Made by a program: the position numbers and the translations under genes. 64,000 nt of DNA from Candidatus Nanopelagicales bacterium (GTDB lineage: Bacteria > Actinomycetota > Actinomycetes > JAHEKZ01). The stretch is taken from the NCBI GenBank assembly GCA_038316135.1, contig JBBQAL010000001.1, positions 1,308-65,307 on the forward strand. Reading direction: 5' to 3'. Shown here one piece after another: positions 2,743 to 45,661 of the stretch (position 1 is its first letter; every line of letters begins with the position of its first letter). The notes beneath the pieces were generated by a model, which had not been told where the DNA came from, searched no databases, and was given only the letters and a program-made list of their open reading frames with translations.

Positions 2743-4439
2743 GAGGCAGCTCCTTCGTTACGGGGATCGCCTGGTGGATAGAGCGGGGTGCCCTCGCGGT
2801 AGCGGTAGAACGGGGCGTCCGACGGCGCCAGCGGTGTTTCGCCGTTGATGAGGTCGGCTGCCTTCTCGGCGAGCATCATCACCGGGGCGTAGATGTTTCC
2901 GTTGGTGACGTAGGGGAATGAGCTGGCGTCCACCACGCGTAGGCCTTCGACGTCGTAGACCTTCATGGACGCGGGATCGAGGACGGCGTCGTCGCCGACT
3001 CCCATCTTGGCGGTGCATGAGGGGTGCAGCGCGGTCTCGGCGTCCTTGCGCACCCAGTCGAGAATCTCGTCATCGGTTTCGACGGATGCCCCAGGGGAGA
3101 GCTCCCCATCGTTGAACGGGCCGAACGCAGGCTGGGTCAAGATGCTGCGGGCGACCTGAATGGCCTCGACCCACTCGCGTCGGTCCTGATCGGTGGAGAG
3201 GTAGTTGAACTGCATCGACGGGTGTTCCATCGGGTCGGTGGAGCGGATCTTCACCCAGCCGCGTGCATCGGAGTACATCGGGCCGATGTGCACCTGGTAC
3301 CCGTGGCCCTTGGTCGGTGACGTGCCGTCGTAGCGAATGGCGATGGGTAGGAAGTGGAACATCAGGTTGGGGTAGTCGACCTCGTCGTTGCTGCGCGTGA
3401 AGCCGCCGCCCTCGAAGTGGTTGGTGGCGCCGAGCCCCTTGCGCTGGAAGAGCCACTGGGCTCCGATCCCTGGGCGCTTCCACCAGGCAAGCCCCGGCGC
3501 GATCGAGACAGGCAGCTTGCTCGCGTACTGGATGTAGACCTCGAGGTGGTCCTGCAAGTTCGCCCCGACCCCGGGGAGGTCGGCCACAACTGGGATCCCC
3601 AGCGATTGCAGGTGCTGTGCGTCACCCACTCCGGACAACTGCATGAGCTGGGGAGTGTTGATCGCTCCGCCGCAGAGGATGACCTCACCCGCCTTGACCG
3701 AACGCTTCAGGCGTCCGGCGCGGACGTACTCGACGCCGACGGCGCGCTTGCCTTCGAAGACAACCTTGGTGGCGTGGGCCAGGGTCTCGACGTCGAGGTT
3801 CTTCCGGTCCATGACCGGGTGCAGGTAGGCGCGAGCTGCGCTGAGCCGTCGTCCCTTGTGGATGTTGCGGTCGAACTTGGCGAACCCCTCTTGCCGGTAG
3901 CCGTTGACGTCGTCGGTGAGGGGGTAGCCGGCCTGCTGGGCCGCCTCGAAGAAAGCGCCGAAGAGCGGGTTCGTGGCGGGCCCCCGTTCGAGCACCAGGG
4001 GCCCACTGCCGCCGCGCCACTCGTCAGCGCCGGCAAGGCAGGTCTCCATGCGCTTGAAGTAGGGCAGGCAGTGGGCGAAGTCCCAGTTCTCCATGCCCTT
4101 GTCGGCACCCCAGCGCTCGTAGTCCATGGGGTTGCCGCGCTGGAAGATCATTCCGTTGATGCTGCTGGAGCCACCGAGCACCTTGCCGCGGGCGTGGAAG
4201 ACCCGGCGGTTGTTCATGTGCGGCTCGGGGTCGGTCTCGTAGCGCCAGTCGTAGAACCGGCTGCCGATCGGGAAGGGCAACGCGGCCGGCATGTGGATGA
4301 ACGGATCCCAGATGAAGTCTGGGTGCCCGGCCTCGAGCACAAGAACCGAGGTGCCGGGGTCAGCGCTCAGTCGGTTGGCAAGTGCGGACCCCGCTGACCC
4401 GCCGCCGACGATGACGATGTCGTAGCGCTCATCGCTCAT
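2739..4439 (-). CDS. betA: Choline dehydrogenase (GMC oxidoreductase)
   Basis: 566 aa. N-terminal FAD fold [23 protein letters not shown] signatures [14 protein letters not shown] and HPSCTAKMG. Sits between betB and the betaine-type ABC transporter. Confidence 0.9.
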
Positions 4440-43264: not shown

Positions 43265-43759
43265 TCAGCGGTAGTTGACGTACTGCAGAGCTACGTCGAG
43301 TTCCTTGCCGTCAAGTAGTCGCTGGATCGTCTGAAGGTCGTCGCGACTCTTACTGGTCACCCGCAGCTCGTCCCCTTGGATCTGGGCCTTGATGCCCTTG
43401 GGCCCCTCGTCCCGGATGATCTTGCCAATCTTCTTGGCGTGCTCCTGGCTAATGCCCTGGGAAAGTGTCCCACTGATCTTGTACTCCTTGCCCGATGCGG
43501 CAGGGTCGCCGGCATCGAGGTGCTTGAGCGACACCTTGCGCTTGACCAGCTTGTCCTTGAAGACGTCGAGTGCTGCCTTAACCCGCTCCTCGGAGTTGGC
43601 CCGGACCTCGATCCCCAACTCGCCCTGCCACTCGATAGACGCGCCGGTGCCCTTGAAGTCGTAGCGTTGGCTCAGCTCTTTGGCCGTCTGGTTCAAGGCG
43701 TTGTCGATCTCCTGACGGTCGACCTTGCTGACGATGTCGAACGAGGACTCCGAGGCCAT
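43265..43759 (-). CDS. yajQ: YajQ-family (UPF0234) nucleotide/c-di-GMP-binding protein
   Basis: 164 aa. Begins [32 protein letters not shown] and ends ...LQYVNYR. Confidence 0.85.
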
Positions 43760-43858: not shown

Positions 43859-43940
43859 GGCAGGTTGCCCGAGTGGCCAAAGGGAGCGGACTGTAAATCC
43901 GCCGGCTCAGCCTACGTTGGTTCGAACCCAACACCTGCCA
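43859..43940 (+). tRNA. tRNA-Tyr (GTA), long variable arm
   Basis: Folded by hand. Acceptor ggcaggt/acctgcc. Anticodon loop ctGTAaa. T arm gttgg-ttcgaac-ccaac. CCA is not encoded. Confidence 0.9.
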
Positions 43941-43944
43941 CGCC

Positions 43945-43976
43945 TAAGAACCCCCGACTCCGGTCGGGGGTTCTTA
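43945..43976. terminator. Perfect 14-bp stem / 4-nt loop hairpin (taagaacccccgac-tccg-gtcgggggttctta); likely bidirectional terminator
   Basis: Starts 5 nt after the tRNA-Tyr 3' end. Its right arm contains the TAA stop of the minus-strand Ser-repeat ORF. Confidence 0.6.
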
Positions 43977-44291
43977 CGTTCGGCGGGCGGTCGCCGCCAC
44001 GACCGTCGCCAAAGTTGCGAGCCCCACAACTGTCCCGATCAGGCGCCAGCGCCCCGTTGGAGTCCCCATGACGGCCCCGGCGGTCGCTGACGACATGAGG
44101 GACCCGGCGCTTGCCGCCGACAGGGCCGAAGCCGCAGACGCCGCTGAGCCGATCGACAGGACCGATGCCACCGATCCGACCGAACAGATGCTGGCCGCTG
44201 ACCCAATGGACCCGATCGACCCGATGCTGCCCTGGGACGCGATGGACAGGAACGAGTCGGTGGATGCGAGTGAGAGCCGGGAGTTCGTCAT
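43974..44291 (-). CDS. Candidate small tail-anchored protein with (Ser-x-x)x22 triplet repeat, 105 aa
   Basis: ATG 44291. Sequence: MTNSRLSLASTDSFLSIASQGSIGSIGSIGSAASICSVGSVASVLSIGSAASAASALSAASAGSLMSSATAGAVMGTPTGRWRLIGTVVGLATLATVVAATARRT. Ser occurs at every third residue from 4 to 67, encoded by both TCN (19) and AGC (3) codons. C-terminal hydrophobic helix followed by RRT. The stop lies inside the hairpin. No clear SD. An antisense plus-strand frame shares the same third codon positions, so strand assignment is not certain. Confidence 0.45.
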   Translation of the reverse strand: MTNSRLSLASTDSFLSIASQGSIGSIGSIGSAASICSVGSVASVLSIGSAASAASALSAASAGSLMSSATAGAVMGTPTGRWRLIGTVVGLATLATVVAATARRT

Positions 44292-44399
44292 GGGCGAATT
44301 GTGGCTGGCGGGGAAGGATCGCGATAGTGGCTGGCGAGGCCGATTTCTCGGGCGGCGTCGGCCCCGTGTAACCTGTCTCCGCTCGGGAAGCCGAGTGAG

Positions 44400-44472
44400 G
44401 CCCCAATAGCTCAGTCGGTAGAGCGTCTCCATGGTAAGGAGAAGGTCTACGGTTCGATTCCGTATTGGGGCT
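44400..44472 (+). tRNA. tRNA-Thr (GGT)
   Basis: Acceptor gccccaa/ttggggc. Anticodon loop atGGTaa. T arm tacgg-ttcgatt-ccgta. Confidence 0.9.
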
Positions 44473-44519
44473 CGGGGCCTGGCCATCGATCCTCACCGGT
44501 CGCGGCGCCAGGTTCGGTC

Positions 44520-44593
44520 GGCGGAGTAGCTCAGGTTGGCAGAGCAAGCGGCTCATAATCGCTGTGTCGCCGGTTCAAATCCGGCCTCCGCTA
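44520..44593 (+). tRNA. tRNA-Met (CAT), elongator type
   Basis: Acceptor ggcggag/ctccgct (first pair G-U). Anticodon loop ctCATaa. T arm gccgg-ttcaaat-ccggc. Confidence 0.85.
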
Positions 44594-44644
44594 CTCAGCA
44601 GGTAGGCAGTCCAGCAACACCCAAAAGCAACCCTAGGAGTCCCG

Positions 44645-44827: not shown

Positions 44828-45661
44828 GTGACCACTCCGCATCCGGCGGCTGCGTCAGGCCGGCTGACCGGACGAGTCGCTGTGATCACCGGCGCTGGAC
44901 GCGGTATCGGTCGCTCCACCGCCCTCCGCCTCGCTGCCGAGGGGGCGTTCGTCGTCCTCGGTGACCTCGATCGAGGGCCTCTTGAGGCGGTGGCGGCCGA
45001 GCTCCCCGGCCCCGTGACCGCCACGTACGCCGGCGACACCGCCGACGCCGAGCAGGCGAGTGCCTTGATCCAGACGGCCATCGACGCGTTTGGAACCGTG
45101 GACATCCTGGTCAACAACGCCGGGACAACACGCGACCGCATGTTCCACCGCCAGGACGCTGCCGACCTGGACGCTGCGATGGACGCCAACCTACGCACAG
45201 CGTGGAACGCGACTCAGGCTGCACTGAGTGTCATGCGACCTGCTGCGAAGGCCGAGATCGCCGCGTCAGGTGCTGTCGACCACCAACGCAAGATCGTCTT
45301 CACGTCGTCGGTAGCTGCCCTCACCGGTAATCCCGGCCAGGCCAACTACACCGCGGCAAAAGGGGCGATCATCGCCCTCGTTCGTACTCTCGCCCAGGAA
45401 CTGGGTCCGTTCGGCATCAACGTGAACGCTGTTGCTCCTGGCTTCATCGAGACGAGGCTCACCGCGGAGAAGGGTGCGGCGCGTGACGTCGGCATCCCCC
45501 GTGAGATCCGCGAGTCCATCCGCGGCATGATCAGTCTCGGCCGCTTCGGGCAGCCGGAGGACATTGCCGCGGCGACGGCGTTCCTGGCATCGCCCGACAG
45601 CGACTATGTCTCAGGGGTCACGCTCCCGGTTACCGGGGGCCAGTTCGGAGGGATGGGCTGA
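44828..45661 (+). CDS. Short-chain dehydrogenase/reductase, 3-oxoacyl-ACP reductase (FabG)-like
   Basis: VAVITGAGRGIGRSTA, NNAG, and a YTAAK catalytic Tyr-x3-Lys. Confidence 0.85.
   Translation: MTTPHPAAASGRLTGRVAVITGAGRGIGRSTALRLAAEGAFVVLGDLDRGPLEAVAAELPGPVTATYAGDTADAEQASALIQTAIDAFGTVDILVNNAGTTRDRMFHRQDAADLDAAMDANLRTAWNATQAALSVMRPAAKAEIAASGAVDHQRKIVFTSSVAALTGNPGQANYTAAKGAIIALVRTLAQELGPFGINVNAVAPGFIETRLTAEKGAARDVGIPREIRESIRGMISLGRFGQPEDIAAATAFLASPDSDYVSGVTLPVTGGQFGGMG

Follow-up and report, generated by a model that had tools for sequence, protein, structure and literature searches.

A probable, previously uncalled gene for a small serine-triplet protein between the tRNA-Tyr and tRNA-Thr genes of a Candidatus Nanopelagicales bacterium, and its family in Actinomycetota

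Small proteins in which one residue returns strictly at every third position are already known in several forms. In the HxsA proteins (NCBIfam NF038313, HxsA4) Ser is among the residues that recur in this way, and Hxs systems carry radical-SAM maturases. Collagen-like proteins of the Scl type (PF01391), like other Gly-x-x proteins, maintain a strict period of three over 60 residues or more, with a fixed number of triplets, a small recurring residue and three separate faces, and the snow-flea antifreeze protein is a polyproline-II (PPII) bundle built on a Gly-x-x tripeptide repeat. A further class, the tail-anchored or C-terminally anchored small membrane proteins of Actinobacteria, is defined by topology and not by homology. 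We analyse here a 105-amino-acid (aa) open reading frame (ORF) with Ser at every third residue, located on the minus strand (43974-44291) between a tRNA-Tyr and a tRNA-Thr gene in a 64,000-nucleotide (nt) stretch of DNA of a Candidatus Nanopelagicales bacterium (this whole stretch, of 64% GC, is called the window below). We think that this frame is probably a real gene of a Ser-triplet family (at a probability of about 0.8 to 0.9), and that a genuine, previously uncalled protein-coding gene running from 44291 to 43974 on the minus strand is the best explanation of the locus taken as a whole (about 0.82).

The protein shares features with the repeat proteins just mentioned without qualifying as an HxsA or a collagen-like protein. 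It has the strict period and the fixed triplet number of the collagen-like proteins, but the invariant residue is Ser and not Gly, which is the consensus third residue in 8 of 22 triplets of the family and is found there in 7 of 21 in the window protein. There is no Pro in the window Ser domain, no Pfam model matches the window protein, and the PF01391 Collagen model matches one of 113 family members (E=0.0086), so that the family cannot be called collagen-like. The resemblance to HxsA is limited to the period-3 Ser; the window domain is devoid of His, and positions held by aliphatic residues or Gly set the Ser family apart, as does the membrane helix that is often present at the C-terminus. 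A type I toxin was considered and rejected, the protein having 105 aa with a 64-residue non-membrane domain whereas such toxins are usually single-helix peptides of less than 60 aa; no Rfam antitoxin RNA was found at threshold (istR reached 21.5 bits for a cut-off of 45). More generally, no Pfam, NCBIfam (at cut-off), PDB, PHROGs or PADLOC family covers the protein, the PDB matches being artificial TGS linkers, and a full-text literature search, in part poorly targeted, found no paper describing a Ser-triplet family. The first-pass annotation of this locus, made from the letters alone, had not recognised the family either, and the curated libraries indeed contain none of it. We rate the family as lying outside every described kind, "new" meaning here an undescribed family and architecture, and implying nothing about mechanism.

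The frame begins with an ATG at 44291-44289, ends with a TAA at 43976-43974, and occupies most of the 458-nt spacer separating tRNA-Tyr (GTA; 43859-43941, plus strand) from tRNA-Thr (GGT; 44400-44473, plus strand). Its product, MTNSRLSLASTDSFLSIASQGSIGSIGSIGSAASICSVGSVASVLSIGSAASAASALSAASAGSLMSSATAGAVMGTPTGRWRLIGTVVGLATLATVVAATARRT, can be divided into a Ser-x-x domain (residues 4-67, 22 triplets; 44091-44282, minus), a linker, SATAGAVMGTPTG (residues 68-80; 44052-44090, minus), corresponding to a stretch, "AVMG-x-P", that is weakly conserved in the family, and a C-terminal hydrophobic helix (residues 81-104; 43980-44051, minus), a putative membrane anchor, followed by Thr105, the last residue of a basic RRT end. 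Re-reading of the sequence agrees with the first-pass description on each of these points: Ser is present at residues 4, 7 and so on to 67, in 22 of 22 triplets; the second position of the triplet is mostly aliphatic or Ala (six Ile, six Ala, three Val, two Leu and four others) and the third mostly Ala or Gly (seven each, with four Leu and three others); the periodic Ser is encoded by 19 TCN and 3 AGC codons (residues 22, 34 and 61). It had also been claimed that this is not a plain DNA repeat, and Tandem Repeats Finder detects only short and weak 9-nt and 27-nt arrays in the spacer. One of them, at 44067-44122 (2.1 copies of 27 nt, 79% match), spans the linker and the last part of the Ser domain; 27 nt being the length of the nonapeptide unit of the family (type S-x-L-S-I-G-S-V-G), this is consistent with a domain that grows and shrinks in nonapeptide steps. 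A DNA pattern for S-I-G-S-I-G-S-A had no match in the window, owing to the AGC and ATT codons.

Neither this ORF nor the one overlapping it on the other strand is present as a called protein in a collection of 15 billion proteins. Relatives of the Ser protein are numerous. A word-indexed search with the minus-strand peptide gave 146 matches, down to E=3.7e-15, all of them small, of about 80-180 aa, and built alike, and a profile search against 1.84 billion representatives recovered 1271, 595 and 35 clusters (at 50% identity) for E<=1e-3, 1e-10 and 1e-30, respectively, nearly all of 85-230 aa and without recurrent fusion. RefSeq (PGAP) calls the Ser frame in three species, as "hypothetical protein"; WP_239152838.1, WP_435839082.1 and WP_436774430.1 can serve as exemplars. 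We located genomic loci by scanning one genome per species with a consensus peptide; 114 were confirmed by tblastn and 80 were fetched. The 80 all come from Actinomycetota (Actinomycetes, Acidimicrobiia and Thermoleophilia), the carriers including Streptomyces, Kitasatospora, Kribbella, Micromonospora, Salinispora, Janibacter, Frigoribacterium, Herbiconiux, Rhodococcus, Actinomyces, Bifidobacteriaceae, Corynebacterium, Acidimicrobiia, Solirubrobacterales and Gaiellaceae, and on these genomic sequences the family is restricted to this phylum. Searches for carriage by phages, viruses or plasmids gave no match, a weak negative since two of them, made with BLAST, use a low-complexity filter that could mask matches.

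The members have a short variable N-terminus followed by S-R-W-S-L-W-S-x-D-S-F-L-S-I-A-S-x-G-S-V-L-S-I-G-S-V-G-S-…-S-R-W-S-L-L-S, that is, a core of about 22 Ser-x-x triplets in a constant register, with aliphatic residues at position 2 and Gly, Ala or Leu at position 3, bordered at both ends by triplets containing Trp and Arg. The third position follows an L-G-G rhythm, from which the nonapeptide arises, and certain members are nearly perfect (SAGSILSIG)n arrays. The domain is composed of 33% Ser, 13% Gly and 35% Leu, Ala, Val or Ile, with about 3 Lys/Arg and 1.5 Asp/Glu per 69 residues, mostly in the end triplets with Trp and Arg. The number of triplets is 13 to 31 among the members; the length of the domain is nearly fixed and its conservation position-specific. 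The window protein is 72% identical to the family consensus (E=3e-22), and its domain aligns gap-free to 32 members at 40-60% identity; the resulting alignment of 33 members has essentially no gaps in the domain and shows no variation at 16 Ser/Gly positions. The resemblance extends to the end of the protein, since the linker, helix and basic end of the window protein, SATAGAVMGTPTGRWRLIGTVVGLATLATVVAATARRT, match members of the Solirubrobacterales type (e.g. L025, L028 and L046).

A second frame, of 113 aa and rich in Asp/Glu and Pro, is open on the plus strand at 44068-44409. It shares its third codon positions with the Ser frame, so any test of which strand codes has to rest on codon positions 1 and 2. 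Opposite the 22 Ser codons it reads Asp/Glu (19) or Leu (3), as first reported. The first-pass annotation had proposed to compare the two periodicities in relatives. The codons of 79 family genes were threaded onto their protein alignment. TCN and AGY codons are both found in 20 of the 22 Ser columns (totals 1494 and 149; 34 and 35 in one column), so that Ser is kept while the opposite strand would exchange Asp/Glu with Leu in these 20 columns; the rare Cys, Ala and Thr variants are the one-step intermediates expected between TCN and AGY. In the aliphatic columns, entropy is near zero at sense position 2 (T) and position 1 is free; overall, position 2 is less variable (0.79) than position 1 (1.20). 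Columns of Leu, Ile, Val and Phe become mixtures of Arg, Ser, Met, Asn, Ile and Lys on the antisense strand, and Trp columns a mixture of His and Gln; one column with 58 Leu, 18 Ile, 2 Val and 1 Phe in the sense frame reads 25 Arg, 19 Ser, 10 Met, 8 Asn, 8 Ile and 7 Lys in the other (mean pairwise BLOSUM62 scores of 3.10 and 0.30, respectively). Averaged over the columns of the whole domain, this score reaches 2.85 for the sense and 2.06 for the antisense frame (1.90 against 0.96 for columns that are neither Ser nor Gly), and the sense frame is favoured in 50 of 64 columns.

Orthologues from the same spacer point in the same direction. Their differences fall at the three codon positions in the numbers 5, 4 and 28, and the ratio of non-synonymous to synonymous substitution rates (dN/dS) is 0.11 in the sense and 0.22 in the antisense frame, or 0.26-0.33 against 0.46-0.53 for more distant pairs; YajQ, a bona fide neighbouring gene, exhibits the same asymmetry (0.04-0.12 against 0.09-0.37). 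Homology, codon columns and orthologue dN/dS thus agree in designating the Ser frame as the selected one and the plus-strand ORF as its shadow: judged from the aligned codons, selection acts on the minus-strand Ser-x-x reading frame.

The way in which the gene would be expressed is in line with this conclusion. When 70 family loci are superposed at the ATG closest to the domain, the region upstream is featureless except for positions -12 to -7, with A at -11 (41/70), a purine (R) at -9, A at -8 (38/70) and T at -7 (40/70). The pattern nAnnnT at -12±1 occurs in 54 of 70 loci, compared with 8.3% of 8119 control ATGs (p≈2e-44). In the window, a -10-like hexamer, CACAAT (44298-44303, minus), stands 6 nt before the ATG, and the relative L001 has the same hexamer. 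Leaderless mRNAs, in which a -10 hexamer ends 6 nt before the start codon, are common in Actinobacteria, and such an mRNA needs no Shine-Dalgarno sequence, which would account for the lack of an obvious one noted in the first-pass annotation. The Ser gene would therefore be driven, as a leaderless mRNA, by a -10 box of its own. The claim of selection on the minus-strand protein is in this way favoured by the codon evidence of the family, by dN/dS, by the promoter geometry and by the full-length architecture.

What the protein does is a more speculative matter. AlphaFold2 was run twice, on the window protein and on a very regular member (P0115), with alignments of 113 and 53 sequences. The hydrophobic C-terminal helix already noted on first reading is predicted at residues 81-104 of the window protein, with a block-mean pLDDT (predicted local distance difference test) of 75-91 (75-95 over both runs), and its best 18-residue Kyte-Doolittle window has a mean of 2.02. 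The N-terminus, MTNSRLSLAS, has no hydrophobic core and hence no signal peptide. These features are those expected of a putative C-terminally anchored single-pass membrane protein, and the likeness to the tail-anchored class (no N-terminal signal peptide, a single helix in the last 30 residues or so, a basic end, a small stand-alone gene) is evident. However, half of the family has no helix, and the charge after it (+2.4) argues for N-out/C-in and not for the classical cytoplasmic orientation of tail-anchored proteins: in the 159 members with a hydrophobic segment, the 12 residues preceding it carry a mean net charge of +0.92 and those following it one of +2.36, an excess that weakly favours, by the positive-inside rule, a C-in/N-out topology. 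The product would then be a single-pass membrane protein held by its C-terminal helix, with a nearly uncharged Ser domain facing the outer side of the membrane and probably forming a periodic surface, extended or self-associating, on which Ser, aliphatic and Gly/Ala positions are kept apart. We regard this model of an outward-facing, membrane-anchored periodic surface as tentative only.

For the Ser domain itself, a three-residues-per-turn helix (PPII or 3-10) with a Ser face had been imagined on first reading; this finds no support in the AlphaFold2 models, where one run gives the domain (block-mean pLDDT 42-64) as a low-confidence α-helix and the other as coil, with no PPII bundle of the antifreeze type. 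Left-handed β-helices of hexapeptide repeats and other β-solenoids were rejected, there being neither a Pfam match nor a strand in the models. No stable globular fold of the monomeric domain is predicted. In a direct-coupling analysis with an effective sequence number of 203, a separation of 9 prevails among the non-local couplings (it accounts for 16 of the top 60) and no antiparallel arrangement is seen, a result most simply explained as an artefact of the evolution of the nonapeptide repeat and not as contacts. That the family displays at the membrane a Ser-laddered, three-faced, extended or self-assembling architecture with no counterpart among known folds, one that predictors miss since its folding requires an oligomer or a partner, is in our opinion an idea that is rather doubtful.

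Several of these observations weigh against the reading of the locus that we prefer, and they should be considered together. The AlphaFold2 model of the Ser domain, as just said, is without confidence. The hydrophobic C-terminal segment is present in 159 of 314 members, the other half ending in short Arg-rich tails, so that membrane anchoring is not universal in the family, and Arg residues are found before the helix as well as after it, which makes the topology call weak. The G+C contents of the three codon positions (GC1/GC2/GC3) are 0.54/0.70/0.81 in the Ser frame, the order of the first two being reversed relative to the normal genes of the window. Finally, lesions or absence of the gene in several close relatives mean that the window copy could itself be on its way to decay.

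This last point is the basis of the alternative that survives best, namely that the family is real and the window copy a non-functional relic, still intact by chance. Orthologous spacers were fetched from six relatives via YajQ or the ORF itself. By its YajQ homologues the window belongs to an uncultured lineage of actinomycetes: the best named matches are labelled "MAG: Actinomycetia bacterium", and identity with cultured genera is only about 75%. In L085 (YajQ 89% identical, spacer of 526 nt) the ORF is intact, with 117 aa and a hydrophobic helix. In L001 (461 nt) the Ser domain is intact and, as a result of two compensating frameshifts, an Arg-rich tail takes the place of the helix; L086 has a one-base frameshift near the N-terminus; L082 (YajQ 95%; 449 nt) is degenerate, with several frameshifts and Ser to Phe/Leu changes; and no ORF is present in L083 (92%; 172 nt) or L084 (89%; 118 nt). 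The expectation of the first-pass annotation that orthologous spacers conserve the Ser period therefore holds only in part, the ORF being absent in two of the six and frameshifted or damaged in three. A gene that is intact, damaged or absent among such close relatives must be dispensable. The window copy, for its part, keeps the -10 box, the ATG, the Ser in 22 of 22 triplets, the linker, the helix, the basic end and a stop codon set in a hairpin, and its dN/dS relative to L001 and L085 is 0.11-0.33 at a dS of 0.6-0.8. We consequently consider the relic hypothesis unlikely; by its substitution pattern and distribution, the Ser gene is under purifying selection where it is kept, and yet lost repeatedly.

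The comparison of the L001 spacer (2870-3330, minus) with positions 43980-44060 of the window reveals how a tail can change: with insertions of +2, +3 and +1 nt, the DNA of the Ala/Val/Gly-rich helix encodes an Arg-rich tail instead, and the frame is restored before the stop. Frameshifts in the GC-rich DNA encoding the helix may thus interconvert the helix form and the Arg-rich (16% Arg) tail form.

Another hypothesis, inspired by the likeness to Hxs and lanthipeptide systems, is that the protein is a precursor peptide of the ribosomally synthesised and post-translationally modified kind, with the periodic Ser as modification sites. NF038313 is the only curated model with recurrent weak matches, in 79 of 113 members (best E=1.3e-7), but these reflect only the period-3 Ser: all scores are below the 55-bit cut-off, the window protein reaches 15.9 bits (E=0.018), and there is no His periodicity. 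No radical-SAM, dehydratase, cyclase or other conserved neighbour was found among 80 loci, no radical-SAM domain was detected in the 20 neighbours scanned and no adjacent maturase gene in the family loci scanned, nor was a context of modified-peptide synthesis or of defence found; moreover, a C-terminal membrane anchor is atypical for precursors. We believe that this hypothesis is very improbable.

The plus-strand ORF deserves more discussion than its chances would warrant, as it looks, in isolation, like the better gene. It could be argued that this ORF codes and that the Ser frame is its shadow: its GC1/GC2/GC3 of 0.69/0.55/0.77 are like those of real genes of the window, and GGAG precedes its ATG by 5 nt, as the first-pass annotation had correctly pointed out. 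The same is observed across the family, where, in loci L002-L081, the rule GC3>GC1>GC2 finds the antisense frame coding-like in 48 cases and the true frame in 8. This inversion is, however, explained by the TCN codons of Ser, with T in position 1 and C in position 2, and composition-based rules will here pick the wrong strand. The shadow stays open because the sense frame is almost without Tyr, His and Gln codons; it has in common with other shadow ORFs of high-GC genomes this cause and the shared third positions, and differs from them by its more gene-like composition and its GGAG-ATG start. Against the 146 matches of the Ser peptide, the plus-strand peptide has a single one among 5.8 billion proteins, P0001, encoded at the equivalent locus (L001) of a related metagenome bin. 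Here the P0001 frame reads across both tRNA-Thr and tRNA-Met, and the C-terminal third of the protein is in another frame than the window ORF. P0001 is a public call of 162 aa (L001 3001-3489; ENA ERZ25039524 contig_7058), and we interpret it as a shadow frame mis-annotated owing to its gene-like composition. The window ORF likewise runs straight through the conserved block upstream of tRNA-Thr and ends 10 nt inside this tRNA (another detail of the first-pass annotation with which we agree), and its ATG (44068) corresponds to the reverse complement of the linker's V-M codons, in a weakly conserved column where Met is not invariant in the family. Adding to this the mixture of Ile, Met, Thr, Ser, Arg, Lys and Asn in its other columns, and a dN/dS twice that of the Ser frame, we judge that the ORF is not a gene and that this alternative, extremely improbable, is largely refuted.

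The last possibility, that neither frame codes and the region is a non-coding spacer of a tRNA operon, a DNA repeat or a structured RNA, could invoke the position between tRNA genes, the weak arrays and the frequency of long shadow ORFs at 64% GC, but has practically no credibility, given that orthologue substitutions cluster at one codon position, that homologues at unrelated loci throughout the phylum are conserved as proteins and not as DNA, that an Rfam scan matches no family beyond the tRNAs, and that relatives do well with a spacer of 118-172 nt.

We thus return to the reading of the Ser frame as a gene, and to the limits of this gene. Its TAA lies, as first described, within a hairpin, at the base of a perfect 14-bp GC-rich stem (43945-43976; -37.7 kcal/mol, z = -6.9), which begins 4 nt past tRNA-Tyr, with only a weaker outer helix extending into the 3' end of the tRNA. 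The hairpin may be a bidirectional terminator without a U tract, at which transcription of the Ser gene would end together with that of the convergent tRNA-Tyr. Its equivalent is found 3' of tRNA-Tyr in the relatives L083 and L084, which lack the ORF, and hairpins are not enriched downstream of family genes over random GC-rich windows (p=0.75). A scan of the spacer for consensus promoters and terminators found nothing, as can be understood from a hairpin without a T run and a -10 box without a -35 partner. On the other side, a block of about 66 nt directly 5' of tRNA-Thr (44334-44399, plus) is kept in all orthologous spacers, including the 172-nt one without ORF, and more weakly in the 118-nt one; it is probably the promoter or leader of thrT-metT(-rpmG), and not a part of the Ser gene. 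The Ser unit is accordingly a self-contained gene, divergent from thrT, convergent with tyrT and antisense to both.

Around the spacer are found the gene for YajQ (43265-43759, minus), tRNA-Met (44520-44594) and rpmG (L33; 44645-44809), followed by a short-chain dehydrogenase gene (44828-45661) that lies between rpmG and a hadAB-like dehydratase pair (FAS1_DH/MaoC). This dehydrogenase gene is a second presence/absence polymorphism of the neighbourhood: the window and L086 have it, as do L084 (in two parts, of 226 + 44 aa) and L001 (where the call is 142 aa long), and L082, L083 and L085 do not.

Elsewhere the Ser gene is stand-alone, with no neighbour conserved beyond genus-level synteny in the 80 loci; in ten diverse loci the neighbours are mutually unrelated (DnaK, EF-G, SSB, MarR, LuxR, MFS, HlyIII, an amidase, ABC-F and an adenylate cyclase). 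An association of the family with tRNA genes was considered and rejected, a tRNA directly adjoining the gene in 2 of the 80 loci; the tRNA context of the window gene is incidental. The family gene is convergent with tRNA-Ser in one locus (L038 3376-3468), and in another (L073 2775-2849) it lies just downstream of tRNA-Val. In Salinispora fenicalii (L003 1403-2710) the adjoining gene encodes a "putative ice-binding-like adhesive domain" protein (PF20597, E=3e-47), a proximity that is probably coincidental and is mentioned in view of the periodic hydroxyl surface of the Ser domain.

The existence of this family has some practical consequences. Ser-triplet genes put composition-based gene finders at risk, as the true frame has GC1<GC2 and no Shine-Dalgarno sequence whereas its shadow has the composition and the start of a gene; the shadow has been called through two tRNAs in one public assembly, and neither frame is called in the window. 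The family is also a sharp example of a conserved leaderless promoter geometry. From a biological point of view, several hundred clusters (at 50% identity) in three classes of Actinomycetota have so far remained in none of the curated family libraries that we searched, and a fixed number of Ser-x-x triplets organised in nonapeptides is a design not seen before. Since AlphaFold2 cannot fold the Ser domain, the latter offers a clear opportunity to discover a new fold or principle of assembly. If a Ser-laddered domain is really displayed at the membrane, it would have a biology of its own, for instance the binding of a regular envelope polymer or the formation of a lattice at the membrane surface.

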